The notes: generated by a model not told the origin, from the letters alone. DNA of 64,000 nucleotides from an uncultured Elusimicrobia bacterium (GCA_964537395.1 CAZIBN010000007.1:2843-66842); one strand, 5' to 3'; counted from the stretch's first letter, positions 4,254 through 39,764 are shown. Translations and numbers: made by a program.

Positions 4254-5281
4254 CCGGCGCCAAGCTGTCGTTTCTGGACCGATACCTCACGGGCTGGATC
4301 TTCGGTGCGATGGCTTTGGGCGTGGGGCTGGGCTATTTCCTTCCGGGGGTGCCGGCTTTCGTCAATCGCTTCCAGATCGGGACGACGAACATCCCGATCG
4401 CGATCGGCCTCATCCTGATGATGTATCCGCCGCTGGCCAAGGTGCGCTATGAGGAGCTCGGCGAGGTGTTCCGGGATAAGAAGGTCCTGACGCTCTCTCT
4501 CGTGCAGAACTGGTTCGTCGGCCCCGTCCTGATGTTCGTCCTGGCCGTGGTTTTTCTGCGCGGCTATCCCGAATACATGGTGGGCCTGATCATGATCGGC
4601 CTGGCGCGCTGCATCGCCATGGTCATCGTCTGGAACGAGCTCGCCGAGGGAGACAGCCAATACGCGGCGGGGCTTGTGGCCTTGAACAGCGTGTTCCAGG
4701 TCCTCTTCTACAGCCTCTACGCCTGGTTCTTCATCACGATATTGCTTCCGATGGTCGGGCAGTCCGGCTCCGTGGTCGACGTCGGCGTCGGAGACATCGC
4801 ACGGAGCGTGTTCATCTATCTGGGCGTTCCTTTCCTGGCCGGGATGGCGACGCGGTGGGCGCTGCTGCGTTCGAAGGGGAAAGAGTGGTACGAGTCCGTC
4901 TTCATCCCGCGCGTCAGCCCGCTGACCTTGCTGTCTCTGCTCTTCACCATCGTGGTCATGTTCAGCCTCAAGGGCAAGCTCATCGTGAGCCTTCCCCTTG
5001 ATGTCCTGCGCATCGCGCTGCCGCTTCTGATCTATTTCGCGGTGATGTTCCTCCTCAGCTTCTGGATGGGGCGCAAGGCGGGGGCGGATTACTCAAGGAC
5101 GGCGACCCTCGCTTTCACCGCCGCCGGCAACAATTTCGAGCTGGCCATCGCTGTGGCCGTGGCCGTGTTCGGCATCGACTCCGGGCAGGCCTTCGCCGCG
5201 GTCATAGGCCCGCTGGTCGAGGTGCCGGCCCTCATCCTGCTGGTGGACGCATCCTTGTTCTTTAAAAAACGTTTCTTCTGA
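4250..5281 (+). CDS. acr3: ACR3-family arsenite efflux permease
   Basis: 10-TM protein, [22 protein letters not shown]..., typical ACR3 length of 343 aa. The ATG overlaps the arsC stop. Confidence 0.85.
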
Positions 5282-5288
5282 GCTCGCT

Positions 5289-6002
5289 TCAGGCGAAGAT
5301 GAGCTTAAAGCCGGCGATGGCGAGGACGACGGCCAGCAGGCGCTTGATCGCGGCATGCGGCAGACGCGTGCTGCCGAGGTAGGAGCCCGCGGCCCCTCCG
5401 GCCAGCGCGGCAAGGGCGAGCGGCCAGGCGACGTTCGGAATGGAGCCGGTCTTGCTGAGATAGCCGGCCAGCCCTGACATGGAATTGACGAGGATGAACG
5501 CGGCGGAGACCGCGGCGATCGTTTTCGTGCCGTCCCATCTCAGGAATATCCCGAGCGGCGTGAGGAAGATTCCGCCACCGGTGCCGGTCAGCCCGGAGAG
5601 CAGGCCGAGCCCCGCCCCGACGCCGAGCGACACGGGCAGCGCCGGAGGCTTCGACGCCGGCTCCGCCGGAGGGTCGAGGAGAAAGCGCGCGGCGGAGGCC
5701 AGCAGGACCAGGCCGACGGCGATCTTGAAGGCCCGGGTAGGGAGGTTGAGCCAGCCGCCGAGGAACGCGCAGGGCACGGAGGCCAGCGCGAGCGGCCAGA
5801 ACAGCTTCCAGGAAAAGTGGCCGGCGCGCCGGAACTGCCACGAGGCGATCGTCGCGACGAGGATGTTGAGCGCCAGCGCCGTCGGCTTGACGATATCGGG
5901 CGCCAGGCCGAACAAGGTCATCACGGCGATATAGCCGGACGCTCCCGCGTGTCCCACGCACGAATAAAGAAAAGCGACGGCAAACACCGCGATGGCCAGC
6001 AA
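5289..6002 (-). CDS. TauE/SafE (DUF81, TSUP) family anion exporter
   Basis: Two-repeat 8-TM protein with glycine-rich loops (GLTGTGGGIFLTPL). Confidence 0.7.
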   Translation of the reverse strand: MLAIAVFAVAFLYSCVGHAGASGYIAVMTLFGLAPDIVKPTALALNILVATIASWQFRRAGHFSWKLFWPLALASVPCAFLGGWLNLPTRAFKIAVGLVLLASAARFLLDPPAEPASKPPALPVSLGVGAGLGLLSGLTGTGGGIFLTPLGIFLRWDGTKTIAAVSAAFILVNSMSGLAGYLSKTGSIPNVAWPLALAALAGGAAGSYLGSTRLPHAAIKRLLAVVLAIAGFKLIFA

Positions 6003-6005
6003 GAT

Positions 6006-6404
6006 CTATAAACGCGCGGACCAGCTGTTCGGGTCGAGCATCTCCCGGACCATCGTCACGAGGGCATCCATGTCCATCGGCTTGCGGAGGAAGCGCACGC
6101 GCGGCTCGGGGGGGATCTGGCTGGCGAAGCGCACGGCCTCCGTGCCGCTGATGAACAGCACCGGGAGCAGATTCGTTTCCTGCCGGGCGCGCAGGTCGGC
6201 GAGCAGCTGGACGCCGGTCTTGCGCGGCATCTGATAGTCGAGGATCGCGAGATCGGGATTCTCCTCGAGCGCGATGCGTTCGGCGGCCAACGGGTCGTGG
6301 CAGACGATGACGTCGTGGCCCTCGCCCGCGAGGCATTCCCGCAGGACTGCGGTCAGGGCCTCTTCATCGTCGACCACGAGTATCTTTGCCATCAGGTAGA
6401 GCAT
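6006..6404 (-). CDS. single-domain response regulator (CheY-like receiver)
   Basis: KILVVDDEEALTAVLRECLAGEGHDV...LAILDYQMPRKTG. An SD-like AAGAGG lies 5 nt upstream of the ATG at 6404. The ORF track extends to 6626, but that extension has no SD. Confidence 0.75.
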   Translation of the reverse strand: MLYLMAKILVVDDEEALTAVLRECLAGEGHDVIVCHDPLAAERIALEENPDLAILDYQMPRKTGVQLLADLRARQETNLLPVLFISGTEAVRFASQIPPEPRVRFLRKPMDMDALVTMVREMLDPNSWSARL

Positions 6405-6486
6405 AAAGACCTCTTGCGGCGCCGTCAAGTGCAGTGTGACCATACCGTGCTTGCGGGCACGCCTGGCGAGGGGTACACTATGAAGC

Positions 6487-8064
6487 GTGAAATTCCCCGT
6501 GCCGAGCGGCGAATCCGGATTCCTCGAATCGATCATCGATACGGTGGACGACCCTGTTTTCGTCAAGAACCGCGACCATCGCTGGGTGCTTTTCAACCAG
6601 GCGTTCGTCGTCCTTCTCGGGCACACGCGCGAGCAGCTCCTGGGAAAGTCGGATTACGATTTCTTCCCGAAGGCCCAGGCCGATGTGTTCCGGAGGCAGG
6701 ACGAGCTCGTCTTCGAGACGGGCCGTGAGAACTCCAATGAGGAGACTTTGACCGACGCGCAGGGGATGACCCATGTGCTGGTCACCAGGAAGAACCTTTG
6801 GACCTCGCCGGGCGGAGAGAAATACCTTGTTGGCGTGATCCGGGACATCACCGCGCTCGTTGGCGCGGCCGATGACGCCAAGCTGAGCAAAGAGCGGCTG
6901 TTCCGCGCGCATAAGCTGGAGACGCTGGGGAATGTGGCCGGCGGCGTGGCGCACGACTTCAATAATCTGCTCACGGCCATACGCGGCAGCGCGGGCCTTC
7001 TGCTCGAGAGCCTTCCGGCCAACCACCCGTCTCGCGTCGAGGCCGAGGAAGTCCTGCGCGCCGCGGAGCATGCCGCGACGCTGACGGCGAGGCTTCTGTC
7101 ATTCAGCCGGCGTCCCGACGGCATGCCGCGGCCCGTGGATCTTGCTGAGATCGTGAAGGGCATGCAAGAGGTGCTCCGGCGGCTGCTGCCCTCCAGCGTG
7201 GCATTGGATCTGGTCCTGCCGGAGAAGCTGGGCTCGGTCCTCGCCGATCCGGGGCTCATCGAGCAGGTGCTGCTTAATCTCGTCGTCAACGCCGGGGAGG
7301 CCCTGCCTAAGGGCGGAAACGTCACGATCGAGCTTGCGGGCGCGCCGAAAGGCGGGGCCGGTGTCGCCGGACCCTGCGTTCGTCTCACCGTGCGCGATGA
7401 CGGGGCCGGGATGACCGAAAAGGTCCGCGCGCGCATCTTCGAGCCGTTCTTCACGACCAAGGAGAGCGGAAGCGGCCTCGGGCTCTCGACGGTCGCTGAG
7501 ACCGTTCGCCGCAACGCGGGGGCCGTCGAGGTCGTCAGCGCGCCGGGCAAAGGCACCTCCTTCCACGTTTACTGGCCGTTGTGCGCGGGCAAGGCCGCGC
7601 CCGTCAAAAAAGCGAGAAGCGGGTCGAAGCCTGGGCAAGGACGCGGGCGGGCTCTCGTCGTCGACGATGACGATGCGGTGCGCCGCTTCCTGGTGCGCTG
7701 CCTGGAGAAGGAGGGCTACGAGGTCCTGTCCGCGAGAGAGCCTGTCGAGGCGCTGCGGATCGGCGATGCCAACGAAGGCCTCTTCGACCTGCTTGTGATC
7801 GACGTCGTGATGCCGCGGATGCGCGGGCCGGAGCTGGCTGCTCGCCTGCGCTTGCGCCAGCGCGAGGCGCGGGTGCTGTTCACCTCGGGCCGGCGTCGCG
7901 AGGATTGCGGCCTTCCCGAAGGCGAGGCGGCCGAATTCCTGGCAAAGCCCTTCTCGGCGAGAGATCTGACCGGGATCGTCAGCGGCGCGCGGCTCGGCGC
8001 AGGCGGTCCATCACGGCGCGCCCGACGCCCCGGTCCGGCACGGTCTCGACGTAAAGCGTCCTGA
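6487..8064 (+). CDS. hybrid sensor histidine kinase (PAS - HisKA - HATPase_c - receiver)
   Basis: H-box LETLGNVAGGVAHDFNNLLTAI, followed by an ATPase G-box (DDGAGMTEKV...GSGLGL) and a C-terminal receiver (ALVVDDDDAVRRF...LLVIDVVMPRMRG). The GTG at 6487 lies 7 nt after a TACACT hexamer. Confidence 0.85.
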   Translation: MKFPVPSGESGFLESIIDTVDDPVFVKNRDHRWVLFNQAFVVLLGHTREQLLGKSDYDFFPKAQADVFRRQDELVFETGRENSNEETLTDAQGMTHVLVTRKNLWTSPGGEKYLVGVIRDITALVGAADDAKLSKERLFRAHKLETLGNVAGGVAHDFNNLLTAIRGSAGLLLESLPANHPSRVEAEEVLRAAEHAATLTARLLSFSRRPDGMPRPVDLAEIVKGMQEVLRRLLPSSVALDLVLPEKLGSVLADPGLIEQVLLNLVVNAGEALPKGGNVTIELAGAPKGGAGVAGPCVRLTVRDDGAGMTEKVRARIFEPFFTTKESGSGLGLSTVAETVRRNAGAVEVVSAPGKGTSFHVYWPLCAGKAAPVKKARSGSKPGQGRGRALVVDDDDAVRRFLVRCLEKEGYEVLSAREPVEALRIGDANEGLFDLLVIDVVMPRMRGPELAARLRLRQREARVLFTSGRRREDCGLPEGEAAEFLAKPFSARDLTGIVSGARLGAGGPSRRARRPGPARSRRKAS

Positions 8065-14632: not shown

Positions 14633-14680
14633 GGAGGAATTGTAGCATGGGGTCGCGCGAACTTTTCTATGCTCTCCCCC

Positions 14681-15913
14681 ATGAACAAGGATGCCTCCAA
14701 GCGCAACGCGGCCGCCGCCGTCCTCCTCGCGGCCCTCGGCTATTTCGTCGATATCTACGACCTGATCCTGTTCAGCATCGTGCGCGTGGCGAGCCTCAAG
14801 GACATCGGGGTCGCCCCGGAAAAGATGCTCGACACCGGCCTCCTGTTGATCAACATGCAGATGATCGGCATGCTGATCGGCGGGCTGCTGTGGGGCATCC
14901 TCGGCGACAAGAAAGGGCGGCTGTCGGTTCTGTTCGGCTCGATCGCGATGTACTCGATCGCCAACATCGCCAACGGCTTCGTTCACTCGATCCCTGCCTA
15001 CGCTGTCTGGCGCTTCGTCGCCGGGATCGGCCTCGCGGGAGAGCTCGGCGCGGGCATCACGCTCGTCTGCGAGCTGATGCCCAAGGAGACCCGCGGCTAC
15101 GGCACGATGGTCGTGGCCGGCGTCGGCATCGCGGGCGGCGTCGTGGCCGGCCTCGTCGGCGACTGGTTCGGCTGGCGCAACGCCTACTTCATCGGCGGCG
15201 CGATGGGCCTGGCCTTGCTGACCTTGCGCGTCGGCGTCTACGAGTCGGGCATCTTCGACAAGGTGCTCAAGGATTCTTCGGTCAAGCGCGGCGATTTCTT
15301 CATGCTGTTCGCGACCAAGGATCGAGTGCTTCGCTATCTGTCCTGCATCGCGCTCGGCATCCCGGTCTGGTTCGTGATCGGCATACTCGCGACCTTCGCG
15401 CCCGAGTTCGGCAAGGCGCTGGAGATGCCCGTTCTTCCGACCGGCTCCCGCGCGGTGATGTGGCTGTACGCCGGCTGCGCGCTGGGCGATTTCGCGAGCG
15501 GCGGCCTGAGCCAGCTGCTGCGCAGCCGCAAGAAGGCGGCGCTTATCTTTGTAATCGCGACGGCCATGACGTGCGCGGTGTATCTGAATCTTCAGGGCGC
15601 TTCGCTTCGAACGTTCTACTGGACCTGCGGCTTTCTTGGGTTCTTCTCCGGCTACTGGGCGATCTTCGTGACCATCGCCTCAGAGCAGTTCGGCACGAAC
15701 ATCCGTGCGACTGCGACCACGACCGTCCCCAACTTCGTTCGCGGCTCGCTGGTCGTCGTATCGGCCTTGTTCCAGTTCCTTAAGCCGGGTCAGGGCATAC
15801 TCGGCGCCGCCGGCATCGTCGGCACGCTCTGCTTCGCCCTGGCCCTGTTCTCGCTTTTGGGCTTGCGCGAAACCTTCGCCAAAGACCTCGACTACCTAGA
15901 ACCCCACATGTAA
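14681..15913 (+). CDS. MFS transporter
   Basis: 12 TM. MFS motif GILGDKKGR. TATGCT lies 7 nt upstream of the ATG at 14681. An alternative ATG is at 14669. Confidence 0.75.
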   Translation: MNKDASKRNAAAAVLLAALGYFVDIYDLILFSIVRVASLKDIGVAPEKMLDTGLLLINMQMIGMLIGGLLWGILGDKKGRLSVLFGSIAMYSIANIANGFVHSIPAYAVWRFVAGIGLAGELGAGITLVCELMPKETRGYGTMVVAGVGIAGGVVAGLVGDWFGWRNAYFIGGAMGLALLTLRVGVYESGIFDKVLKDSSVKRGDFFMLFATKDRVLRYLSCIALGIPVWFVIGILATFAPEFGKALEMPVLPTGSRAVMWLYAGCALGDFASGGLSQLLRSRKKAALIFVIATAMTCAVYLNLQGASLRTFYWTCGFLGFFSGYWAIFVTIASEQFGTNIRATATTTVPNFVRGSLVVVSALFQFLKPGQGILGAAGIVGTLCFALALFSLLGLRETFAKDLDYLEPHM

Positions 15914-15916
15914 GGC

Positions 15917-16007
15917 GGTGTCAGGCTTTCACATTCGCGCAATTCTCACCGCGCCGCTCCATCCCGCATGAGGAATTGCGCGAATGTGAAAGCCTGACAC
16001 CTTTTTT
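15917..16007 (+). terminator. rho-independent terminator: 29-bp perfect stem (termini GGTGTCAGGC/GCCTGACACC) plus T6
   Basis: GGTGTCAGGCTTTCACATTCGCGCAATTC..GAATTGCGCGAATGTGAAAGCCTGACACC followed by TTTTTT, directly after the MFS stop. It shares outer arms with the element at 3401-3468. Confidence 0.75.
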
Positions 16008-16016
16008 AAGCTGCGC

Positions 16017-19000
16017 CTATTGTGTCTTCAGCCAGCGAGCGAGCTTGAGGTAGACGAGCGCGACGCCGGTGTAGAAGGCGGCGAACATCCAGAAGGTCGC
16101 TGTGCCGAAGCCAGCGAACAAGCCGCCCCACAGCAGGAAGCCCGCGACGAAGCTCAGGTAGGTCAAGGTTCGGATCGCGCCGAGGATGCTGCCCGCGAGC
16201 GCCTTGTCCTCCTTGGGGATGCGGTCCTTCATGATGGTGTCGAGGTGGATGATCGCCATCTGGCTCGTGAAGCCGATCAGGAGCAGGAGCGGGGAGATCG
16301 GGAAGATCGGCCATACGAAGGTGAACAGCACGGTCTGGCTGACGAAGGCCCAGGAGCCGAGCATCGCGGCCGCGGTCCAGATCAGGGACTTGGCCGCGCT
16401 CTTTGCGTATAGCTTGCGGCCCGCGTCATCGCGCTCAGCCTCGGGCAGCAGCGCGGTCTTCTTATCGATGAGGCGGCTAAGGCGGTCCATCGCGAGCGCG
16501 CCGAACAGCGCTCCCACGCCGTAGAGGCCGGTCAGCGATCCCGCGACGGCGGCCGCGTGCTTCGGATCGCCGGCGACGTAGGCGCCGAAGGCCGTGGCGA
16601 TGATGTAGTACATCATGTACAGGAAGCTGGAAAGAAGGATGTATCCTAAAAGGGGCTTGGCGATGCCGGGGTTCTTGAACACGCCACGGAAGCCCGCGCC
16701 CCAGCCCGCTTTCTTCGCCTCGACGGCCGCGGCCGGCGTGGCCTTGGGCAGCTTGAGCAGGAAGGCCAGGCCCGCCGCGATCGCGAAGGCGACGGGCGCG
16801 GGGTAGATCACCGCGCCGAAGCCGAATGCGGCGATGGCGAGGCCCATCGCCGAGGCGACGAACACGGTCCCGTACTCGATGAAGTCACGGAAGGAGCCGA
16901 AGCGGCTCGACGAGGTCGGCTTGTCGTGGAACCAGGCGACCTGGAGCTTGTGCTCGGCGACGCGGCCGATCGAGTGGAAGAAGTAGTCGAGGCTGAACAG
17001 GCCGATGAGTGCTGCGAGCGGCAAGGTGCCGGTCAGCGGGTTGAACAGCAAGGCGATCGTGATCCAGATGCCGGTGCGCACGGTGAGGACGGTGCGGTAG
17101 GTGCGGCTGATGCCGAACTTATCCACCCAGCGGCCGCCGAACAGCGCGCCGGCGGTGTAGGCGAGGTAGCTCACGACGGTCAGGCCCGCGAGCGCCAGGA
17201 AGCCCTGGGTCAGCGGCTGGGTCATTTGGGAAACGGCGAGCGAGGTCGACTCGACGACGGTCGAGACGAGCACGAAGGTCGAGAGGAAGCCGAGCACGAC
17301 CTTAGAGAAGAGCCCAGGTGCAGGCGTCGGCGCGGCTTCCGCCGCAGGCGGAAGCTGCGACGACGGGGACTGCGTCTTCAGTTCCGGTACGAGGTCCTGA
17401 GCAGTCGGCTGCTGATAGTCGCCGCGCGCGCGCACGATCTCGCCGTTGTCGCGCTTGATCTTCAGGACCAGGCGGCGCGAGGCCAGGAGCGCGGAGCGGA
17501 TCGCGTCGCGCCAGGTCTTGCCCTTGCCGATGATCTCCGCCCACTCTTCATAGGCGTTGCCCTTGGCCGCGACGATGCGGTCGCCCGCCTCGACGAACAC
17601 TCGCGCGAGCTCGACGCCGGGAACCTTGCGCGCGGCCTCGAGGCCTTCGACGGACTCGAGCGTGCCGTTGCGGCTGGAGGCGAGGAAGGTGTAATGGATG
17701 ACGCCGTCGGGCGTGTGCCCGGGGTCGACCTTCAGGCCGAGTATGGAGCGCAGTCCTTGTTCCACGAGACTCATGCCGGTCAGGCTCTTCACTGCCTGCC
17801 AGATCGCGACGCCGCCCATGAAGGGATTGATCTCGATGACGCGCGGGCCGTCGGGGGTGGAGAACAGGTCGAGGCGCGCGTTGCCGTCTTTGAGGCCGAG
17901 CGCCTTGAGGGCGCGCTCGGAGGCGGCGATGAGCTCAGCGTGGTCCGCGACGGCCGTCTGTCCGGGGAACACGAGAATGCCGCCGGCGAGCTCGCCCTTC
18001 TGCCCTAGGCCCTTGGTATCGGAGACGATCGCGAAGGCGGCCTTGCCGTCCTGCATGACGACCTCGACGGAGGTCTCCTCGGTGCCCGGGTTCTTCTCGA
18101 GCATGCGCTCCATCATGAGGCCCGGGTGCGTGCTGAAGGTGGTCTGCCTGGCTTCGGGGCGGGCGACGAAGTCGCGCACGGCCGCGTCCATCTTGAGGTA
18201 GGCGGCGGCGGCCTCGTTCTCGGACTTGATGTTTAGGTCGAGGAAGCGGCTGTTCTCGCCGCGGCTGGTCTTGATCATGACCTTGTACTTGCCTTCCTCG
18301 GAGATCTCGTGGTACGCCTGGCGCGCCTCCTTCTCGCTTCCGATCACCGCGTACGCGACGTGCTGGCTCGCGTCCACGTTGAGGCGCTTGCGTGCCTCCG
18401 GCTTGTTGTCGGCCGCGGCGACGACATCGCCGGCGATGCCTTTTGCGCCGAGCTTGTCGGTGATCCTGCCGGTCAGGCTCGCGTACAGGCTCATGAAGCC
18501 GACGACCGCGTGCGCCTTCGCGCCTTCGGGGTGCGCGGCGACGGTCTCCGCGATCTTGCCCATCGTCTTGCCGTCGCGGGTGTTGATGGGCGCGGCGATG
18601 AAATTCGAGTCCGGAATGCTGTCGATGGAATTCTTGCGGTTCGCGGGATCGTCCACGAGCACGAGGTTGAGCCCGAGCTCCTTGGCGACGCGCAGAGCTT
18701 CCTGCATGATGAACGGGCGCGAGCCCTTCGTGCCGACCATGACGACGGTCTTGCCGCGAACCGCCGCTTCCGCCGCGGCCGCGGGAGAGAGCGCGATGAC
18801 GGACGCAGGCTGTGCCGAGGCGGGAGAAGGGCTCGCGGGCTCCGGCAGCGCCGAGGCGGCCGGGAGGATCGGGGCCTGTGCGGCGATCGCGGCCGGAACG
18901 GAGGCGCGTTCGAGAGGAACCGGCGCGCCCGAGGCCTGCAACGAAGGAGCGGACAGCGAGCCGAACGAAGGAGAGAGGAGCGATATGACGGATACGTTCG

Positions 19001-19151
19001 CGGCCGGTGCCGCGACGGCGCCCGCGGCCGAAGAGGCGGACGAGACGGGCGCGATGACGCGGGCGGTCTGCGCCCATGCCGGCCAGGGCGCGAGCACGAC
19101 GACGAACGAAACGACGAGGGACGCAACGGAGCGAAGCGCGCGTGATTTCAT
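16017..19151 (-). CDS. fusion protein: N-terminal signal-like hydrophobic segment + Ala/Ser/Pro linker + ATP-grasp ligase domain + C-terminal 12-TM MFS transporter
   Basis: N-terminus MKSRALRSVASLVVSFVVVLAPWPAWAQTA. ATP-grasp motifs: KYKVMIKTSRGENSRFLDL, EVVMQDGKAAFAIV, RLDLFSTPDGPRVIEINPFMGG. The last ~430 aa are 12 TM, MFS-like. An extended -10-like TGCTAACAT lies 8 nt upstream of the ATG at 19151. Confidence 0.7.
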   Translation of the reverse strand: MKSRALRSVASLVVSFVVVLAPWPAWAQTARVIAPVSSASSAAGAVAAPAANVSVISLLSPSFGSLSAPSLQASGAPVPLERASVPAAIAAQAPILPAASALPEPASPSPASAQPASVIALSPAAAAEAAVRGKTVVMVGTKGSRPFIMQEALRVAKELGLNLVLVDDPANRKNSIDSIPDSNFIAAPINTRDGKTMGKIAETVAAHPEGAKAHAVVGFMSLYASLTGRITDKLGAKGIAGDVVAAADNKPEARKRLNVDASQHVAYAVIGSEKEARQAYHEISEEGKYKVMIKTSRGENSRFLDLNIKSENEAAAAYLKMDAAVRDFVARPEARQTTFSTHPGLMMERMLEKNPGTEETSVEVVMQDGKAAFAIVSDTKGLGQKGELAGGILVFPGQTAVADHAELIAASERALKALGLKDGNARLDLFSTPDGPRVIEINPFMGGVAIWQAVKSLTGMSLVEQGLRSILGLKVDPGHTPDGVIHYTFLASSRNGTLESVEGLEAARKVPGVELARVFVEAGDRIVAAKGNAYEEWAEIIGKGKTWRDAIRSALLASRRLVLKIKRDNGEIVRARGDYQQPTAQDLVPELKTQSPSSQLPPAAEAAPTPAPGLFSKVVLGFLSTFVLVSTVVESTSLAVSQMTQPLTQGFLALAGLTVVSYLAYTAGALFGGRWVDKFGISRTYRTVLTVRTGIWITIALLFNPLTGTLPLAALIGLFSLDYFFHSIGRVAEHKLQVAWFHDKPTSSSRFGSFRDFIEYGTVFVASAMGLAIAAFGFGAVIYPAPVAFAIAAGLAFLLKLPKATPAAAVEAKKAGWGAGFRGVFKNPGIAKPLLGYILLSSFLYMMYYIIATAFGAYVAGDPKHAAAVAGSLTGLYGVGALFGALAMDRLSRLIDKKTALLPEAERDDAGRKLYAKSAAKSLIWTAAAMLGSWAFVSQTVLFTFVWPIFPISPLLLLIGFTSQMAIIHLDTIMKDRIPKEDKALAGSILGAIRTLTYLSFVAGFLLWGGLFAGFGTATFWMFAAFYTGVALVYLKLARWLKTQ

Positions 19152-19285
19152 TGAGTGTGATGTTAGCACGCGGTAACCGCGCACGTTGTCAAAATTGGTC
19201 CCACTCGGGGGAGGCAATCGCACTACCTTTACAGTGGGACCTTCGACTCTCGATGGTGGGTCCAAGGTCCCCGCGCCGGAAGAAA

Positions 19286-20152
19286 ATGATACGATGCGCC
19301 ATGCGAAAAAATGCATTTTTCTGCTTGGTGCTCATCGCCATGTGCATCTCCGCGACGGCGGCCGCGCCGTCGAAAGCTCCCGTCGTTCCCGACGCGCTGA
19401 TCGTCCGAGCCGTCTCCTGGGACTATTCCTGGAAGCCTTCGACGGACAAGGAGTGGGATGCTCGCGTCATCAGCGAGGTCGCCGCCGCCGCCAAGGCCGG
19501 GGCCGACGTCATCGTATTCCCGGAGCAGTTCTCGAACGGGCGCAGCCTCGAGGGCGTACTCTCCAGCGTCAGGGATGCCGCTGGCGCCGAGCGCCTCGTA
19601 GTTCTCGGCAACGCGCCGTATCAGGAGGCGGGCTGGGATCATGTCGTCAGCCGCGCCTATGTTCTCTCCGGCGGCTCCTGGCAGGTGATGGATAAGGTCG
19701 ACCCCACTCCGGCCGAGCGCGCGCAGAAGCCGCCGGTGAAGCCCGGCACGCGCTTCCCTCTGTTCCGCTTCCGCGGCGCGGTGGTCGCGGTACTTCCGGC
19801 GTTCTCGATCGAGAAGCCCGAGATCGCCGCTTCCATGAAGAAGCGCGCGGTCCAGCTCGTGCTCGTCTCCGCGCCCGCCGAGGACGAGGAAGGCTCGGCT
19901 CGCGTCTTGCGCGCCGCCTCCGCCCGCGCGGTCGAGCTCGGCGCCGCGGTCGTGGTCGCGACTCCGTCCTCCGCGGCACCCTCGCTCCATCTGCCCGCGC
20001 AAAAGGGATTCGAACTCAAGCCTCAGGCGCCCAAGGGGCGCGACTTCCGTCTTCCCTGGAAGAAGATCCTCGATCTGCGCGCCCAGCCCGACGGTAAGGG
20101 CGAAGCGCGCCCCTTCCTCGATCCGGCGCCGTACTACCAGATCGAGATTTAG
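19286..20152 (+). CDS. secreted carbon-nitrogen hydrolase (nitrilase/Lnt-like) homologue lacking the catalytic Cys (probable pseudo-enzyme)
   Basis: Signal peptide MIRCAMRKNAFFCLVLIAMCISATAAA. The Glu motif DVIVFPEQF is present and a Lys region (VMDKVDP) is present. At the ICYE position the sequence reads LPAF. SD GGAAG precedes the start. Confidence 0.5.
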   Translation: MIRCAMRKNAFFCLVLIAMCISATAAAPSKAPVVPDALIVRAVSWDYSWKPSTDKEWDARVISEVAAAAKAGADVIVFPEQFSNGRSLEGVLSSVRDAAGAERLVVLGNAPYQEAGWDHVVSRAYVLSGGSWQVMDKVDPTPAERAQKPPVKPGTRFPLFRFRGAVVAVLPAFSIEKPEIAASMKKRAVQLVLVSAPAEDEEGSARVLRAASARAVELGAAVVVATPSSAAPSLHLPAQKGFELKPQAPKGRDFRLPWKKILDLRAQPDGKGEARPFLDPAPYYQIEI

Positions 20153-20231
20153 AAGATCGGGGCCGTCCTGGTCCTATAATAAGGAAGAGCGGCGCAATAC
20201 GCACGCAACACCCCGCAGCTAAACTGCGGGT

Positions 20232-20780
20232 ATGGGAATCCTCTCGCTGCTCTTCGTCGCGTTCCTGTCCGCGCCCGCGTTCGCGGGCGAGCGCATGACG
20301 GTGCGCGATGCCGGCGGCTTCGATCCTTCGGGCCGGACCGTGGAATTCCCGGACCGCTTCGGCTGGCGCGGCTACGAGGCTGAGTTCTCGTTTTCGTTCG
20401 GTGAGGATGGGAAAGTGTCGGGCGCCTCACGGCTCAATATCGTGATCCTGCGTCGCGGCGGGGGGAAATGGAAGTACTCGTGCCGCGCTTCGAGCGACGA
20501 TCTCGCGTCTCGCGTCGTGCCTCTTGGCGGACGGATCTCCGTGATCGCCGAGTGCCGGGTCAAGCCGAAGGCTTTCGCTAAAGCCGTCGATCTCGACGCC
20601 GAGGACGTCGGCGCGCCTGTATTCGTCTTCGAGGCCGTCATCGAGAACGGCCAGGCGCGCGCAGGCGGCCAGCGCGGGCTGCGCTTCCGGCCCGATTCTC
20701 CGGTGGCGTCTTTGGACCTGAGCCCATTCGCGGCGTCTCCCGACGCCGCCGGCCTGGCCGTCCTATTTCGCGCAGACTGA
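20232..20780 (+). CDS. small secreted hypothetical protein (182 aa)
   Basis: Signal peptide MGILSLLFVAFLSAPAFAGE. No recognisable domain. Confidence 0.5.
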   Translation: MGILSLLFVAFLSAPAFAGERMTVRDAGGFDPSGRTVEFPDRFGWRGYEAEFSFSFGEDGKVSGASRLNIVILRRGGGKWKYSCRASSDDLASRVVPLGGRISVIAECRVKPKAFAKAVDLDAEDVGAPVFVFEAVIENGQARAGGQRGLRFRPDSPVASLDLSPFAASPDAAGLAVLFRAD

Positions 20781-20942
20781 AGCTGGTCGGTGGTCCTCTA
20801 ATAGGATGCTAGGACCCCTCAGGCCTAATTAGGCGTAGGCCGTTTGTCTGGGCCCCGCTTACCCATCTGCACCAGTCCCTTTCCCGGAAGTTCCTCTATA
20901 ATTCAGCAACGCCGCAGGTCGTTCTATTTAGAGGAGCCGATA

Positions 20943-23900
20943 ATGATCATCGAGAGAACCGTCGCGAAGAAGTCCCTGGCCGTGACCCTGGCCCTGGCCC
21001 TTTTCGCTTCCGCGCCGATGAGCGCCTGGTCTCAGACCCAGTCCGCAGCGGCCCGCGCGGGAAATAGCGCCGGAATCATCGGCGCCGTTGGCACGATGGG
21101 CACCATGACCCCGAATATGTCGGCGGTAATGGCTCCGGTGACGCTCCCTAGCCTTTCTCTGAACTCTCCGGCCCTCGTAGTCGCCCCCGCGGTGAAGGCG
21201 ATGGCCGCGGCCCCGATCGCTTCGGCGCAGGCGATGCCTGCCGCGGCCATGCCCCTCGCCGTCGAGGCGCACCCGGTGATCGGCCTCATCAACGCTTTGC
21301 AGGCCAAGGGCATCGTTCTGCCCGAGACGATGTCTTCGCGTGAGGACGCAGCTAAACTGATCGTCGCGGCCCAGGCCATGCCCGAGGGCTCGGCCAAGCA
21401 GAACATGATCACGATGGCCGCCGCCATCAACGCCGCGAACAGCTCCGGCTCTTCTGCCGAGCTGGGCAAGATCTGGGACGCCGAGAAGGCTCGCGCCGAA
21501 GCTCCCGAAGCGGCGCCCGTCCAGGCCGGCGGCTGGCGCTCGGTCGTTACGCGCCTGCTCCCCGCTCCGCTCGCGAAGATGGTCGCGAAGAAAGCCTCTG
21601 ACCCTGTTTCGCCGGCGAAGCCGGCAGATCCTGAGGACTACGCGGTGAAGATCGCGGACCTGCACTACGCGCCCTCGGTCGCGCAGCTCCCGGAGAACAC
21701 CTCCGCTATCCCCGTGTCGGACAACCAGGTCGTGGGCCAGGACGCCGCTCTGAAGGCGATCCGGTTCGGCCTGCAGATGCCCGGCCGCCACTACAACCTC
21801 TTCGTCGCCGGCCCGGACGGCTCCGGCCGCGAGACGGCCCTGCGCCACATGCTCCCCGACGTGGCCGCGAAGATGGCGACCCCCGGCGACCGCGTCGCCG
21901 TGACGAATTTCAAGGACAAGGAAAATCCGCTCGTGCTCGAGCTCGCGACGGGCCGCGCCCCGGCGTTCGTGAAGGGCGTGCGCAATTTCGTGGCGACGCT
22001 CAAGTCCTATCTGCCTCAGGTCCTCGGATCGGGCAAGATCGGCGAAGCAAAGAAGCAGATCGTCGCGCAGATCCAGGAAGCCGGTGCTCAGCGCGAGGAG
22101 GCTTTCCAGGCCGAGGTCAAGGCGATCACGCTCGCCGGCGGCCTTTTCACCGTCGAGTTCTTCGCGAAGCCTTCCGGCGAGGGCCGCATGATGGTCGGCC
22201 TCAAGCTCATGCGCAATGGCCAGGCCGTCGATCCCGCCAACATGGACGCGGACATCGCCGCCGGGGCCTACACCCGCGAGCAGATCGAAGCGGCCATGAA
22301 GGAGCGGGACCAGAAATTCCCCGGCGTCATGGAGAAGTTCAAGGCCATGATGGAGCAGAACAACAAGGAGATGGAGGCCGCCCAGGAGCAGATCGGCAAG
22401 ATGGAGACGCAGGCCGTCGCTTCCATCATCAACCAGGCCGGCGCGCCGCTGATGGAGGCGGTCATGCCTGAGGCCAAGGCGACCCCCGAGATGGCCGCGC
22501 TGCAGGCGAAGATCGATGCGTGGTCCGCCGATTTCGAGGCGCGCGTCTCCGCCGTCAACGTCGACGGCTTCGGCATCGCCTTCATCCAGAACGGCAGCAA
22601 GCTCCAGGTCGCCTACACGCACGGCGGCGAGGCTCTGAGCCAGCAGAAGGTCGAAGCGCTCATGAAGGCCGGCCTGACCCCGGCCAAGTTCAAGCAGATC
22701 CAGGAAGCTCTCGGCGCGGCCGTCGAGCCCCTGCTCACCGAGTTCAAGGCGAAGAACCAGGAGTTCGGCGCCGCGCAGCAGGCGCTGGCCAAGAGCCAGC
22801 CCAAGACAACCGCCACGCCGGAGCAGCTCAAGGCCGCCTCCTACGTGAAGGCGCTGATGAACTTCTCGGCGTCCAACTACCAGATCTTCATGGGCAAGAT
22901 CGCCACGCCGGCCGATGAGGACGGCGAGGAAGGGATCAAGGACGCCCCCGGGCAGAAGGCGATGGACGCCCAGGACTTCTTCGAGGCCAGCGTCCTCTCC
23001 AGCAACGGCGGCAAGACGGGCGCCCCGGTGGTCTGGGTCAAGAATCCGTCCCTCGACAAGGTCTTCGGCAAGGCCGACGACAACAAGCGCACGATGATCA
23101 TCCCGGGCGTGGGCCTCGTCAAGGGCGGCGCCCCGGGCGGCCCGACCTTGATCGGCGGCGCGATCCAGCAGGCCGAGGGCGGCTTCCTCGTGCTCGATTT
23201 CATGGACGTGCTGCGCGCTCCGGGCCTGTACCAGGCGTTGATGGCCGCCGTGAAGACCGGCGACGCGTCGATGGTCGAGGGCGGAATCCAGGGCCTGATG
23301 AACGGCAAGGGCGAGGCGTATCACGTCCCGAGCAAGGTCAAGGTCGTGCTGATCGGCTCTCCGAGCCTGCGCATGATGGTGGAGCGCCAGGACCAGGACT
23401 TCGCGATGAACTTTCAGGCGTCCGCCGACTTCCAGTCCACGCTCAAGGTCGGCGAGGAGTCGGTGGCCGGCTACGTGCAGTTCTTCAAGAAGGCCGTGCT
23501 GACGCTCGCCCGAGAGCTCAAGCAGGACGCGACGAACCTGACGCAGGACGCGATGAGCGCCCTCGTCGAGCAGGGCGCGCGCATGGCCGACTCCAATAAG
23601 AAGCTGACCGCGCAGTTTGGCGCGCTGTACAGCGTCGTCCGCGAGGCCACCTATTGGGCGCACGAGGCGGGCCGCAACGAGGTCCGCCGTGAGGACGTGG
23701 ACACCGCGATGCAGACCAAGCAGGATCGCGAGGAGGTCTATCGCCAGCACATGCTTCAGACCTATAAGGACAACGTGTTCGTCGTGGAGACGACCGGCAA
23801 GAAGGTCGGCCAGATCAACGGCCTGGCCGTCATGGGCACCTTCGGCGTGCCGATGCGCATCACCGTGGTGCCTTCCGCCGCGGCGGGCATGGGCGGGATC

Positions 23901-24458
23901 ATCTCGGTGGACCGCAACGCCGGCCCGAACCAGACCGGCTCGTCCTTCAACAAGGCGCTGGGCATCGTCGAGGGCTTCCTCCAGAACCTGTTCGCGCAGA
24001 AGCGGCCGTTTCCGGCGCGCCTCTCGATTTCCTATGAACAGAACTACGGCGGCATCGACGGCGACTCGGCGACCTCGACGGAGATCTACTCGATCCTGTC
24101 GGCGCTCTCGGGTGTTCCGATCGGCCAGAACTTCGCCGTGACCGGCTCGGCCGACCAGTTCGGCAACGTGCAGGCTATCGGCGGCGTGAACCACAAGATC
24201 GAGGGCTTCTACGAGCTCGCGAAGGCTCGCGGCCTGACGGGCGATCAGGGCATCGTGATCCCGCAGGCGAACGTGGCTGACCTCCAGCTCTCGCTCGAGG
24301 TGGTGGAGGCCGTGAAGGCCGGCAAGTTCCACATCTACGCCGTCAGCCACGTCAGCCAGGGCCTCGAGATCCTGACCGGCGTCGCCTACTCGGAGATCCT
24401 CGCCAAGTCGCGCGCGAACCTGGCGCAGATGGGCAAGCCGGAAGCCAAGAAGAACTGA
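20943..24458 (+). CDS. Lon-like protease (COG1067/LonC-like AAA-like module + Lon_C proteolytic domain), 1171 aa, with N-terminal signal peptide and Ala/Met-rich extension
   Basis: GAGGAG SD 6 nt before the ATG. Signal-like MIIERTVAKKSLAVTLALALFASAPMSAWSQ. AAA-like segment NLFVAGPDGSGRETALRHML, a degenerate Walker A with R in place of K. Lon_C Ser-Lys dyad region GGIDGDSATSTEIYSILSAL...GGVNHKIEG. Confidence 0.7.
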   Translation: MIIERTVAKKSLAVTLALALFASAPMSAWSQTQSAAARAGNSAGIIGAVGTMGTMTPNMSAVMAPVTLPSLSLNSPALVVAPAVKAMAAAPIASAQAMPAAAMPLAVEAHPVIGLINALQAKGIVLPETMSSREDAAKLIVAAQAMPEGSAKQNMITMAAAINAANSSGSSAELGKIWDAEKARAEAPEAAPVQAGGWRSVVTRLLPAPLAKMVAKKASDPVSPAKPADPEDYAVKIADLHYAPSVAQLPENTSAIPVSDNQVVGQDAALKAIRFGLQMPGRHYNLFVAGPDGSGRETALRHMLPDVAAKMATPGDRVAVTNFKDKENPLVLELATGRAPAFVKGVRNFVATLKSYLPQVLGSGKIGEAKKQIVAQIQEAGAQREEAFQAEVKAITLAGGLFTVEFFAKPSGEGRMMVGLKLMRNGQAVDPANMDADIAAGAYTREQIEAAMKERDQKFPGVMEKFKAMMEQNNKEMEAAQEQIGKMETQAVASIINQAGAPLMEAVMPEAKATPEMAALQAKIDAWSADFEARVSAVNVDGFGIAFIQNGSKLQVAYTHGGEALSQQKVEALMKAGLTPAKFKQIQEALGAAVEPLLTEFKAKNQEFGAAQQALAKSQPKTTATPEQLKAASYVKALMNFSASNYQIFMGKIATPADEDGEEGIKDAPGQKAMDAQDFFEASVLSSNGGKTGAPVVWVKNPSLDKVFGKADDNKRTMIIPGVGLVKGGAPGGPTLIGGAIQQAEGGFLVLDFMDVLRAPGLYQALMAAVKTGDASMVEGGIQGLMNGKGEAYHVPSKVKVVLIGSPSLRMMVERQDQDFAMNFQASADFQSTLKVGEESVAGYVQFFKKAVLTLARELKQDATNLTQDAMSALVEQGARMADSNKKLTAQFGALYSVVREATYWAHEAGRNEVRREDVDTAMQTKQDREEVYRQHMLQTYKDNVFVVETTGKKVGQINGLAVMGTFGVPMRITVVPSAAAGMGGIISVDRNAGPNQTGSSFNKALGIVEGFLQNLFAQKRPFPARLSISYEQNYGGIDGDSATSTEIYSILSALSGVPIGQNFAVTGSADQFGNVQAIGGVNHKIEGFYELAKARGLTGDQGIVIPQANVADLQLSLEVVEAVKAGKFHIYAVSHVSQGLEILTGVAYSEILAKSRANLAQMGKPEAKKN

Positions 24459-24491
24459 TTCATCTGACTAGCGACGTTTTGAAAGGAGCCT

Positions 24492-24535
24492 CCGTGCGAT
24501 TCGCGTTCGGCGAATCGACGGGGGCTTCTCTTTTT
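24492..24535 (+). terminator. rho-independent terminator after the Lon-like gene
   Basis: Hairpin CCGTGCGATTCGC-GTTC-GGCGAATCGACGG followed by TCTCTTTTT. Confidence 0.6.
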
Positions 24536-24552
24536 ACGGTAAACTGAACCCA

Positions 24553-25416
24553 GTGCACCCTCGCAATCGGCACAGCGGCCGTTACGACTTCGATCTGCTC
24601 GTGAAGAGCTCTCCCGAGCTTGAGGCCGTCGCGTACCTGAATCCTTCCGGGGAGCCCACGATCGACTTCACCGATCCGGAATCGGTGCTGATCCTCAATC
24701 GAGCCCTGCTGAGAACCTATTACGGCGTGAAGGAGTGGGTTCTGCCGCCCGGCTATCTTTGCCCGCCGATCCCTGGCCGAGCCGATTACGTGCATCACGC
24801 GGCGGACCTTCTGGACCTGCGGCGGGGGGACTCCGTTCGGGTGCTCGACGTCGGTGTCGGCGCCAACTGTGTGTATCCGATCATCGGCCGGGCCGAGTAC
24901 GGGTGGCGATTCACGGGCTGCGACACCGATCCTGTCGCCCTGGCCTCCGCGCAGCGCATCGTCGAGTCGAACCCCGGGCTGGCTGGCGGTGTGGATCTGC
25001 GCCTGCAGACGGGCTCCTCATCGATCCTGGAGGGGATCATCAACAGCGGGGAGTCGTTCGACCTCGTGATGTGCAACCCGCCGTTTCACGCGTCGCTCGA
25101 GGACGCGCGTAAGGCCGCCCGCGACAAATGGGAGAAGCTCGGCCGGCAGCCCGAGGCCGAACGTAATTTCGGAGGCGCGGAGAACGAGCTGTGGTCTCCG
25201 GGCGGCGAGGAGGCCTTCGTGCGCCGCCTGATCGAGGAGAGCGCGGACTTCCGGACGCAGGCTCTCTGGTTCACCGTCCTGATCTCGAAGGTCTCGACCT
25301 TGCCCGTCGTCGAGAAGGCCTTGAACAAGGCCGGCGCGCTCCAGCGGCGGCGCATTGACATGGCGCAGGGGCAGAAGAAAAGCCGGATCGCGGCCTGGTC
25401 CTTCCGCGCACCGTAG
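24553..25416 (+). CDS. rlmF: 23S rRNA (adenine1618-N6)-methyltransferase
   Basis: MHPRNRH.GRYDF N-terminus, NPPFH catalytic motif, VLDVGVGANCVYP SAM site. The GTG start lies 7 nt after a TAAACT hexamer. Confidence 0.8.
   Translation: MHPRNRHSGRYDFDLLVKSSPELEAVAYLNPSGEPTIDFTDPESVLILNRALLRTYYGVKEWVLPPGYLCPPIPGRADYVHHAADLLDLRRGDSVRVLDVGVGANCVYPIIGRAEYGWRFTGCDTDPVALASAQRIVESNPGLAGGVDLRLQTGSSSILEGIINSGESFDLVMCNPPFHASLEDARKAARDKWEKLGRQPEAERNFGGAENELWSPGGEEAFVRRLIEESADFRTQALWFTVLISKVSTLPVVEKALNKAGALQRRRIDMAQGQKKSRIAAWSFRAP

Positions 25417-38280: not shown

Positions 38281-39760
<1,480 letters not shown>

Positions 39761-39764
<4 letters not shown>

Follow-up and report, generated by a model that had tools for sequence, protein, structure and literature searches.

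Organization of an Elusimicrobiota gene neighborhood encoding a ligase-permease fusion, a secreted CN-hydrolase-fold protein, a small secreted protein, and a LonC-type protease

Do four adjacent genes whose products all begin with a signal-like segment make up one envelope system? The question is raised by positions 16017–24458 of the window (the whole 64,000-nucleotide stretch of DNA that was analyzed, from an uncultured Elusimicrobia bacterium), for which an earlier note had proposed a relay: a conjugate is synthesized and exported by a ligase-exporter, bound or presented by a pseudo-amidase, and processed or controlled by a periplasmic protease. Four adjacent open reading frames were present at that span, as had been described, and are designated A, B, C, and D in order; each of the four proteins had a hydrophobic signal-like segment at its N-terminus. 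The relay itself found no direct support, none of its steps being backed by sequence. The explanation that we favor, and that we hold to be about evenly poised between right and wrong, is an Elusimicrobiota-specific neighborhood of two loosely linked pairs, A with B and C with D, rather than one four-part system, since B stays with an MFS gene and C with a protease gene.

Locus layout and the four predicted proteins

Gene A (16017–19151) was located on the minus strand and diverged from genes B, C, and D on the plus strand; therefore, the four genes do not form one transcription unit. On the left, a bidirectional terminator-like hairpin (15917–16007) lay between gene A and a convergent MFS gene (14669–15913, plus strand) and consisted of a perfect 29-bp inverted repeat at 15917–16001 with a loop of 27 nt, followed by TTTTTT. 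On the right, a terminator-like hairpin on the plus strand 3' of gene D (24492–24535) had an 8-bp stem, CGATTCGC/GCGAATCG, at about 24500–24535, followed by a T-rich tract, TTCTCTTTTT. A consensus terminator scan made no call at this hairpin, and its action as a terminator is plausible; the earlier note had described strong terminators at both ends. None of the four proteins matched PADLOC models of known anti-phage defense (e.g., the Lon-like BrxL of BREX) at E ≤ 0.001, and the literature searched held no description of the four families.

Gene A encodes 1044 aa (from MKSRALRS), in which a leader is followed by an L-amino-acid-ligase-type ATP-grasp domain and a 12-TM MFS permease; Pfam matches to LAL_C2 (1.4e-10) and MFS_1 (2.1e-11) agreed with the previous assignment of ATP-grasp plus MFS. 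The protein contained no Cys and showed 55–90% identity across Elusimicrobiota. Its leader comprised a signal-peptide-like helix (residues 1–27; 19071–19151, minus strand) ending in a cleavage-like junction, APWPAWA/Q, with P24, A25, and Q28 nearly invariant, and an almost uncharged low-complexity linker of Ala, Pro, Ser, and Val (residues 28–122; 18786–19070, minus strand) that was predicted to be disordered (pLDDT about 32). In the ligase domain (residues 123–589, including LAL_C2; 17385–18785, minus strand), K294, E440, and N442 (EINP) were invariant in the family and E359 and E363 were conserved; by their likeness to ATP-grasp motifs, these would be ATP/Mg-binding residues. A PDB profile search with A returned five sequences, all of them L-amino-acid ligases, to which the match was distant (E about 1e-8, 14–17% identity). 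In the AF2 model (pLDDT 83.9, pTM 0.53), the best Foldseek matches of the ligase domain were RizA, BacD, and BL00235, with target-normalized TM-scores of 0.69–0.81. The helices of the permease (residues 617–1044; 16020–17303, minus strand) spanned 617–1043 in the model as twelve TM segments in two six-helix halves, and MFS motif A, GGRWVDKFG (GGRWVDKFGISRTY), came after TM2.

The loops of the permease obeyed the positive-inside rule, TM1 was entered from the cytoplasm, and the long K/R-rich loops were on the ligase's side of the membrane. These charges placed the ligase on the cytoplasmic side, indicating that the ligase domain is not exported; the earlier note's claim of export signals on all four proteins therefore held for the signal-like segments but not for the export of this domain. 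A would be an inner-membrane protein whose cytoplasmic ligase joins two amino-acid-like substrates at the expense of ATP to give a small, dipeptide-like amide, and the fused permease would then move this product across the membrane. Such synthesis followed by transport is the most likely use of the fusion; import with ligation as the second step is less likely. Because the relative orientation of the two domains was not fixed in the model, as its pTM reflects, product channeling is put forward only as a possibility.

Gene B (19301–20152, plus strand) encodes 283 aa with a signal peptide, which is its one N-terminal hydrophobic segment, and a CN-hydrolase fold (Pfam CN_hydrolase, 4.1e-8). Active CN-hydrolases have a Glu-Lys-Cys triad. 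In B of the window, Glu (FPE) and Lys (MDKVDPTP) were retained, Ala occupied the canonical Cys position (VLPAFSIEKPE, compared with VLVCFSLEKPE and VLICFDIE in relatives), and there was no Cys outside the leader, which confirmed the description of a Cys-less CN-hydrolase. Glu and Lys were present in nearly all homologues examined, the Pro of FPE being Ala in locus L001. The Cys was lost in the window clade, where Ala, Ser, or Gly replaced it, and in L088 and L112; it was retained in L002, P0227 (B of L110), P0229–P0245, and cytosolic relatives. These motif states suggested that B of the window is likely a pseudoenzyme. With the Cys gone, B of the window clade would probably only bind its ligand, without catalysis, and B of relatives with the full triad would be an active amidase or acyltransferase in the periplasm.

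Gene C (20232–20780, plus strand) encodes 182 aa consisting of a plain signal peptide (AFA/GE junction), without a lipobox, and a beta-rich domain. It had been called an orphan; indeed, it had no family match in Pfam or NCBIfam, but we found 78 homologues, all in Elusimicrobiota. C84 and C108 were invariant, from which we infer a disulfide between them. The AF2 model was confident (pLDDT 86.6), and its fold had no match in PDB.

Gene D (20943–24458, plus strand) encodes 1171 aa and matched AAA_32, LonB_AAA-LID, and Lon_C in Pfam. Its best solved relative in a PDB profile search was MtaLonC (4FWD, E 1e-99), and by sequence D is a protease of the already described LonC type; of the earlier description as a Walker-A-degenerate Lon-like protease, the motif stood, and the type was not a new one. 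Residues 1–102 (20943–21248, plus strand) formed a signal-peptide-like helix (SAPMSAWS/Q) and an uncharged low-complexity stretch with LPSLSL, followed by a small, conserved, family-specific N-domain (residues 103–165; 21249–21437, plus strand) with the consensus AVEAHPVIGLINxLQAxGVxLPE…ALPEGSA. In the degenerate Walker A, GPDGSGRET (residues 290–298; 21810–21836, plus strand; family form GPxGSGRE), Lys was changed to Arg and Thr to Glu, and G290, G293, G295, and R296 were invariant; the Asp-Glu of Walker B was absent, the corresponding GGFLVLDFMD having no Glu and an Asp that was itself not conserved. An enlarged, duplicated helical insertion (residues about 340–665; 21960–22937, plus strand) was composed of two helix/"G-FGV" beta-hairpin/helix units and lay where LonC has its helical-hairpin extension. 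The start of the insertion aligned to MtaLonC residues 16–152, the insertion being much larger, and it scored 19.7 bits against Pfam LonC_helical, under the 24-bit cut-off. In the Lon proteolytic domain (residues about 940–1145; 23760–24377, plus strand), the dyad residues Ser1042 (D1039-G-D-S1042; codon 24066–24068) and Lys1085 (codon 24195–24197) were invariant in 24 sequences. LonC is ATP-independent, and its helical insertion recognizes substrates and acts in chaperoning (PMC3391209, PMC13069640). By analogy, D would be a LonC-type, ATP-independent Ser-Lys chamber protease with a leader and a duplicated substrate-recognition insertion, which C would serve as an adaptor, a regulator, or a dedicated substrate. 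To our knowledge, this is the first known case of a LonC-type protease with a secretion-type leader.

The protease slot, the leader, and the compartment of D

The protease slot beside gene C was occupied by a subtilase (S8) in L090 and by a PDZ-S41 protease in L108, instead of D. Both enzymes kept the leader of D and one unit of the helical insertion. In their N-terminal modules, the two enzymes showed 35% identity over 196 aa (E 1e-25), and these modules matched D at residues 295–491 (E 6e-5) and 514–601 (E 3e-5); the insertion matches from D to S8 and from D to S41 were weak (E about 1e-5) and mutually consistent. Since other folds took the slot with the leader and the insertion kept, it is most likely that the insertion and C define which envelope proteins are captured and that the catalytic fold is interchangeable. 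One slot filled by three unrelated serine-protease folds, with the same recognition module and small partner, amounts to a natural experiment, in which the conserved function would be substrate selection and not catalytic chemistry.

The leader shared by A and D, a signal-like helix with a low-complexity uncharged linker, was unusual but lineage-wide: it was also found on two unrelated genes within the window and ahead of MFS-only paralogues, a TLC/MFS-like transporter, and stand-alone ATP-grasp proteins. Because it is not specific to the locus, its presence on both A and D is no evidence for a common system. Its position ahead of domains that must be cytoplasmic (the ligase of A and the N-terminal parts of three kinds of transporter) also put the exported status of D in doubt. 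The compartment in which D works is judged here from such sequence features. D may not be exported, its leader serving as a membrane anchor and its LonC body lying on the cytoplasmic face of the membrane like archaeal LonB or FtsH, where it would survey membrane proteins such as A and other leader-bearing transporters. We lean against this possibility but take it seriously: the ligase, transporter, and ATP-grasp proteins that carry the leader all need a cytoplasmic continuation, a conserved Arg follows 3–8 residues after the AxAQ motif, the linker of P0129 is strongly basic, and LonC relatives elsewhere are without leaders. Against it, the leader resembles a canonical cleavable signal peptide, neither the A nor the D family has a consistent second hydrophobic segment, the S8 and S41 enzymes that fill the same slot are typically extracytoplasmic, the partner C is clearly secreted, and D contains no Cys, compared with 1–6 in LonC cores from outside Elusimicrobia. 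If the leader behaves alike everywhere, D would face the cytoplasm with C in the periplasm, and the adaptor idea would fail.

A broader proposal covers the leader itself. The AxA/Q-x-x-R signal peptide and uncharged Ala/Pro/Ser "PSLS" linker might be a new sorting or tethering module of Elusimicrobiota, carried by proteins nearly devoid of Cys, among them transporters, ATP-grasp ligases, and proteases, with C and the insertion-bearing protease (S16, S8, or S41) as the processing or quality control of that class. We regard this as a long shot; if true, normally cytoplasmic enzymes (LonC and perhaps even the ATP-grasp paralogues) may work outside the cytoplasmic membrane in Elusimicrobiota. The contradictory topology of the leader points to a gap in the localization-prediction rules for these genomes.

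Gene order in relatives

We compared gene order in about 35 Elusimicrobiota loci, many of them from close relatives, so that each pair was seen in about 4–5 independent contexts. The region was generally syntenic, with a backbone NupC-MFS414-...-D-OmpA around variable inserts, and the adjacency of A and D was no better kept than adjacency to unrelated flanking genes. In L007, AA_permease and amidohydrolase genes lay nearby; in the window, a nucleoside transporter and a second MFS gene did. The four genes, A being replaced by an MFS-only paralogue in some cases, co-occurred in three arrangements with the identity of D down to about 46–49%: the window type, L112 (SpoU inserted, C inverted), and L110 (B-MFSpar-SpoU-C-D). 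Loci L003, L006, L091, L093, L095, L097, and L101 had D and A but neither B nor C, L005 and L009 had D and none of the other three, and L088 had A and B but neither C nor D. Many genomes had D without C, including L101, the D of which was about 80% identical to that of the window. The co-conservation that had been set as a check on the relay was therefore seen in the three arrangements and broken elsewhere.

Two pairs outlasted the rearrangements. B adjoined A or an MFS paralogue in every B-bearing locus, L112 included; the two genes stood head-to-head in L088 and the window type and tail-to-tail in L002 and L110. C adjoined a protease gene in the window type, L110, L007, L112 (divergent), L090 (S8), and L108 (S41 with PDZ). 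The intergenic DNA between A and B (19152–19300) was unusually conserved. Its inverted repeats, GGTCCCAC/GTGGGACC and GGGACCTTGGAC/GTCCAAGGTCCC, were nested, GGCAATCGCACTAC was invariant, and extended -10-like motifs lay 5–8 nt ahead of both start codons; the region was kept in 11 loci, including L002 with a different minus-strand partner gene. It probably serves both genes as a divergent promoter and operator.

These pairs bear on another explanation, that of plain synteny: four functionally unrelated genes that happen to share a block whose gene order changes slowly within one bacterial order. The kept backbone, the order MFS414-SpoU-D in L009 with A missing from it, and the housekeeping RNA methyltransferases SpoU and RlmF located inside the cluster are what plain synteny would give. 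SpoU, a tRNA/rRNA methyltransferase that is presumably unrelated, accompanied C and the protease as faithfully as these accompanied each other (L007, L108, L110, and L112), which shows that adjacency alone can mislead. Nevertheless, we consider this explanation unlikely, because B kept its MFS neighbor through a swap of order and the replacement of A by a paralogue, C kept its protease neighbor through inversion, replacement of the catalytic domain, and a different upstream context (L108), and the A-B regulatory DNA was conserved as a cassette.

One integrated four-component envelope system, in which a peptide or amino-acid conjugate is made and exported by A, bound or presented by B, and processed or controlled by an exported D together with C, appeared more doubtful still. 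The occurrence of all four functions together in three gene orders, at D identities of about 46–100%, and the Cys-free, leader-bearing nature of both A and D would fit it; however, the loci with only part of the set, the equally conserved synteny with the unrelated NupC, MFS414, OmpA, SpoU, and RlmF, the lineage-wide leader, and the divergent transcription of A argue against it. Nutrient scavenging, with an extracytoplasmic D degrading proteins, B trimming, the MFS permease importing, and the ligase trapping or converting the products, would suit the nearby transporter genes and, as bulk proteolysis, the interchangeable S8 and S41 proteases, but it is improbable given a B that is catalytically dead in the window clade yet conserved, a conserved, putative recognition insertion and a dedicated small partner that suggest selective proteolysis, and the fact that we know of no precedent for the fusion of an importer with a ligase that consumes ATP. 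We thus return to two loosely linked pairs as the preferred reading.

Comparison with known systems

The locus defines four uncharacterized protein families in a phylum of which hardly any members have been cultured, and the fusion in A may couple the synthesis of a small amide compound, core to these bacteria, to its export; these findings bear directly on no long-standing open question. The best sequence and fold matches of the ligase domain, which carries LAL_C2, were L-amino-acid ligases (BacD/YwfE of bacilysin synthesis, RizA, and BL00235). Dipeptide-antibiotic pathways have an L-amino-acid ligase and a separately encoded MFS exporter, e.g., BacE. A resembles them in pairing a ligase with an MFS permease but combines both in one polypeptide with a leader, and its neighbors are transporters, RNA methyltransferases, OmpA, and the protease, with no biosynthetic genes of a bacilysin-like cluster. 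Whereas such clusters are sporadic secondary metabolism, A belongs to the conserved core genes of a group at phylum level.

B resembles Lnt in its match to Pfam CN_hydrolase, its weak matches to Lnt domains, and a predicted orientation toward the periplasm like that of the Lnt catalytic domain; in its homologue P0230, the B-like domain is preceded at the N-terminus by a membrane domain. B differs in being soluble, without the 8-TM domain of Lnt and without the catalytic Cys. Its NCBIfam Lnt score was 18 bits against a cut-off of 427, and it fell in an unnamed branch of CN-hydrolases far under every NCBIfam cut-off.

NlpI-Prc of E. coli and LbcA-CtpA of Pseudomonas each combine a small exported partner with an ATP-independent envelope protease. 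C is likewise encoded beside a protease, and one enzyme of its slot is a PDZ-S41 protease of the Prc/CtpA type. C is not a TPR lipoprotein, however, lacking a lipobox and having an unmatched fold, and the likeness would be one of working mode and not of family.

The closest known relative of D is LonC (MtaLonC of Meiothermus taiwanensis; PDB 4FW9/4FWD; MEROPS S16 subfamily C), to which the core of D aligned at the above E-value across both its AAA-like and its protease domain, the Ser-Lys dyad being intact, the Walker A and B motifs degenerate, and a helical insertion lying at the same position of the AAA-like domain. MtaLonC is a cytosolic heat-shock protein, whereas D adds about 250 N-terminal residues (the signal-like helix, the low-complexity linker, and the small conserved domain), has a duplicated insertion about three times longer, and is Cys-free and restricted to Elusimicrobiota.

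Layout and neighbourhood of the locus

The four genes proposed by an earlier note within 16017–24458 were confirmed as open reading frames: gene A, encoding an ATP-grasp ligase joined to an MFS permease (16017–19151, minus strand, 1044 aa); gene B, of the CN-hydrolase fold (19301–20152, plus strand); gene C, for a small secreted protein (20232–20780, plus strand); and gene D, for a LonC-type protease (20943–24458, plus strand). The G+C content of the window was approximately 65%, and close homologues of A, B, C, and D were all found in Elusimicrobiota genomes assembled from metagenomes. Because A was transcribed away from B-C-D, the four genes did not form one operon. The terminator proposed at the left boundary was present between A and the convergent MFS gene as a hairpin (15917–16001) with perfect 29-nt arms, a 27-nt loop, and a following T run; this hairpin far exceeded the usual size of intrinsic terminators. 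At the right boundary, D was followed by a shorter hairpin that ended in a T-rich tail but was not called by a consensus terminator scan. PADLOC gave no anti-phage defence match for the proteins A, B, C, and D, and Rfam gave no known RNA or riboswitch at E ≤ 1 within 15500–25000.

Approximately 35 Elusimicrobiota loci were collected by contig look-ups with exact proteins, a metagenome scan with an A profile, and a genome scan with a D profile, and 14 query proteins were mapped onto them by tblastn. Most hits of the D-profile scan were ordinary LonC genes spread over many phyla, which showed the core to be widespread; with only four Elusimicrobiota loci among its hits, the scan was unfit for neighbourhood statistics. 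Across these loci, the region was a syntenic backbone of NupC–MFS414–[variable part]–D–[RlmF]–OmpA. The variable part was A (minus strand), B, and C in the window and in L001, L008, L089, L096, L100, and L103 (L089 and L096 end within D); A (minus), B, SpoU, and C (minus) in L112; B, an MFS-only paralogue of A (minus), SpoU, and C in L110; A, a histidine-phosphatase gene, and SpoU in L003, L095, and L097, with a divergent form in L006, L091, and L093; A alone in L101, where D was about 80% identical to the window D; SpoU alone in L009; and B with the MFS paralogue in L002. D lay in an unrelated context in L005, and in L088, where C and D were absent, B and A adjoined an MFS paralogue. The survey indicated that adjacency of A–D was common, yet no better kept than that of unrelated flanks, and dispensable. 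For the co-conservation considered in the earlier note, the outcome was mixed: the four genes were often neighbours, yet A, B, C, and D were separable.

The ligase-permease A and its proposed partner B

Pfam domains LAL_C2 and MFS_1 were matched in A. A profile of 19 homologues matched five PDB sequences, every one an L-amino-acid ligase (BacD, BL00235, RizA), with E-values down to 5e-9. The AlphaFold model of A (65 sequences) had a mean pLDDT of 83.9, and the best fold matches of the ligase domain were again BacD, BL00235, and RizA, with target-normalised TM-scores of 0.69–0.81. Since the predicted ATP/Mg-binding residues were kept across the A family, with K294, E440, and N442 invariant, the ligase domain is probably catalytically active. 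In the permease part, twelve helices were predicted and MFS motif A followed TM2; this part showed no significant sequence match to solved structures and matched none of the NCBIfam MFS families. All of the long K/R-rich loops and the C-terminus lay on the ligase side, and the loops on the opposite side were all short and uncharged; from this sidedness the ligase is predicted to face the cytoplasm, in agreement with its need for ATP. In the same genomes, A was much better conserved than D (approximately 70% versus 42% identity).

The larger relatives P0141 (1412 aa) and P0147 (1627 aa) had the reversed order leader-MFS-ATP-grasp, and P0141 carried a further C-terminal region. The existence of ligase and permease domains in both orders suggests that their linkage is functional. 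In L088 (2439–7397) and L102, A was followed by a tandem MFS-only paralogue with the same leader and the HAVxRGFEF motif and without a ligase, an arrangement suggestive of duplication; in L110, L002, and L007 it was this paralogue, instead of A, that adjoined B and D. A possible split A gene in L002 was rejected, as the 482-aa gene was unrelated to A and the MFS gene was of the paralogue type. In clades without B and C, a small histidine-phosphatase (SixA-like) gene followed A (L003 8905–9426; L006 5416–5997; also L095, L097, L099, and L105). The two genes overlapped in L003 and L006 and are thus probably translationally coupled there; no histidine-phosphatase gene adjoined A in the window. 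A literature search on ligase-MFS fusions found nothing relevant.

Pfam CN_hydrolase was matched in B at 4e-8, B lay far under all curated family cut-offs, and an exhaustive HMMER search gave only 119 relatives. An alignment of 19 of these with the copies encoded in the loci showed the catalytic residues Glu (FPE) and Lys (DK-x-x-TP) to be retained in almost all of them. The window clade, L088, and L112 had Ala, Ser, or Gly in place of the nucleophile Cys, which was kept in L002, the L110 copy (P0227), P0229, P0230, and the cytosolic relatives. The view of B as a dead hydrolase was accordingly right for the window clade, and the loss of Cys is a recent one, inside an otherwise catalytically competent, secreted branch. 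One relative, P0230 (638 aa; L114 1645–4199), had a polytopic N-terminal membrane domain and a B-like CN-hydrolase domain with intact Cys, an architecture resembling that of Lnt, and its gene was followed by a GNAT acetyltransferase gene.

In every B-bearing locus, B adjoined A or the MFS-only paralogue, head-to-head or tail-to-tail. The A–B spacer (19152–19300), compared across 11 loci, was conserved above the flanking genes and proteins. It contained the overlapping or nested inverted repeats GGTCCCAC-N29-GTGGGACC and GGGACCTTGGAC-N12-GTCCAAGGTCCC, an invariant GGCAATCGCACTAC, and TGn-extended -10-like motifs located 5–8 nt ahead of both start codons without a Shine-Dalgarno sequence. This composition suggests leaderless divergent promoters with a common operator. 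The same cassette was found upstream of B in L002 despite a different minus-strand gene. The spacer was also tested for RNA structure in either orientation; covariation amounted to one compensatory pair and wobble pairs favouring the plus strand, too little for a call, and a structured RNA on the plus strand is a possible alternative.

The protease D, its proposed partner C, and exchange of the catalytic domain

Residues 260–1147 of D (approximately) formed a LonC-type protease core, for which the best solved relative was Meiothermus taiwanensis LonC (E 1e-99); LonC-like cores with about 35% identity occurred in many bacterial and archaeal phyla. In the D family, the Ser-Lys dyad was invariant, Walker A read GPxGSGRE, and the acidic pair of Walker B was missing, so that the Lon-like protease with a degenerate Walker A noted earlier is indeed one, of the LonC type. 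Published work describes LonC as working without ATP, with a helical-hairpin insertion that serves in substrate recognition and provides chaperone activity (PMC3391209, PMC13069640); the kept dyad and dead Walker motifs of D match this description. Three traits were peculiar to the Elusimicrobiota D family. Its N-terminus was longer by about 250 residues, in which a signal-peptide-like helix ending AW(A/S)↓Q was followed by an uncharged linker and then by a small conserved domain and another linker; its insertion spanned about 330 residues and comprised two similar helix/beta-hairpin/helix units; and Cys was almost absent. Nothing relevant was found in the literature on Elusimicrobia envelope proteases.

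Gene C, previously regarded as an orphan, had 78 homologues, all in Elusimicrobiota and mostly 73–91% identical. The protein had a plain signal peptide, invariant Cys residues C84 and C108, and approximately 40 invariant positions. Its model was beta-rich and confident (pLDDT 86.6, pTM 0.81) and showed no resemblance to solved structures (best TM 0.24). In the complete genome CP096137 (L001 9031–9578), the C homologue was split into two frames, called as 109-aa and 73-aa genes, which is either a frameshift/pseudogene or an assembly error.

C adjoined a protease gene in all C-bearing loci surveyed. Within the 163-bp C–D spacer lay small hairpins, a hexamer resembling TATAAT, and a good ribosome-binding site, and D may accordingly have a promoter of its own. 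In L090, which had the window-type backbone, D was replaced in place by an 856-aa chimera (4636–7206, minus strand) whose first 68 residues were 44% identical to the D leader, whose residues 114–310 matched D 295–491, and whose C-terminus was a subtilase (S8) domain. In L108, SpoU-C was followed by a 740-aa protein (4097–6319, plus strand) that combined a similar leader with one insertion-like unit and a protease part of the PDZ + S41 type; the upstream context differed, its genes encoding a large membrane protein and an alpha/beta hydrolase. The N-terminal modules of the S8 and S41 proteins were 35% identical (E 1e-25), and they matched the first and the second D insertion repeat, respectively (E about 1e-5). 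By these matches, and with S16 in D, three catalytic folds have a leader, a recognition module, and a small partner in common.

Leader topology and interpretation of the locus

The leaders of A and D were of one type, with a 13–15-residue hydrophobic core, Pro, AxA↓Q, and an Arg a few residues on, and with a linker of 60–170 uncharged Ala/Pro/Ser/Val residues containing PSLS-like motifs. The module was also found on MFS-only paralogues and stand-alone ATP-grasp paralogues, on a 608-aa TLC/MFS-like (ATP/ADP-translocase-like) transporter (1575–3401, plus strand) with a PSLS-rich low-complexity stretch of about 160 aa and its sole Cys in the leader, and, as …LLAAPAWA↓QTRV plus a PSLS linker, on a Cys-free 573-aa protein (51053–52774, minus strand) without a Pfam match. 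Its presence on unrelated window genes and paralogues indicated that it is lineage-wide and not a mark of the A–D locus, and a shared envelope destination could not be read from the N-terminal signals as had been supposed. A Ser/Thr protein kinase domain (residues 232–481) was encoded at 38277–39764 (minus strand) behind an N-terminal signal-like helix, another ATP-using domain behind a hydrophobic N-terminus.

The module presents a topology paradox: by prediction, the post-linker part of A and the transporters must be cytoplasmic, but the leader resembles a cleavable signal for export. The idea of a stop-transfer helix concealed within the linker was rejected, as the best 19-residue hydropathy was only about 1.2–1.6, at inconsistent positions, in the A and D families; the A homologue P0129 had a short basic linker and no candidate stop-transfer segment. 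All module-bearing proteins examined were Cys-free or nearly so, compared with 8–14 Cys per 1000 residues in neighbouring genes and 1–6 Cys in LonC cores of other phyla. D may be periplasmic, as favoured by its signal-like leader, Cys depletion, S8/S41 substitutes, and secreted partner C, or it may be tethered to the cytoplasmic side of the membrane, the case favoured if the behaviour that A requires of the leader also applies to D.

On sequence and gene order, the locus is best read as two pairs, A–B and C–D. Plain synteny of A–D is a serious alternative. The relay of the earlier note, in which all four proteins act as one envelope system, lacked specific support and is improbable. With two pairs, A would most likely synthesise, within the cytoplasm, a small product with an amide linkage and move it via its own permease, and B would serve as its partner in the periplasm, as an enzyme in relatives and as a binder in the window clade. 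D would be an ATP-independent chamber protease, whose enlarged recognition insertion and C would select targets. New here are the ligase-permease fusion, a LonC-type protease that carries the leader, a catalytic domain that can be exchanged, the C family, and the conserved A–B regulatory cassette, for which no literature was found. The known kinds present are LonC, L-amino-acid ligase, MFS permease, and CN-hydrolase, and each component is a variant of its kind; in target selection, D with C may be likened to adaptor-guided envelope proteases.
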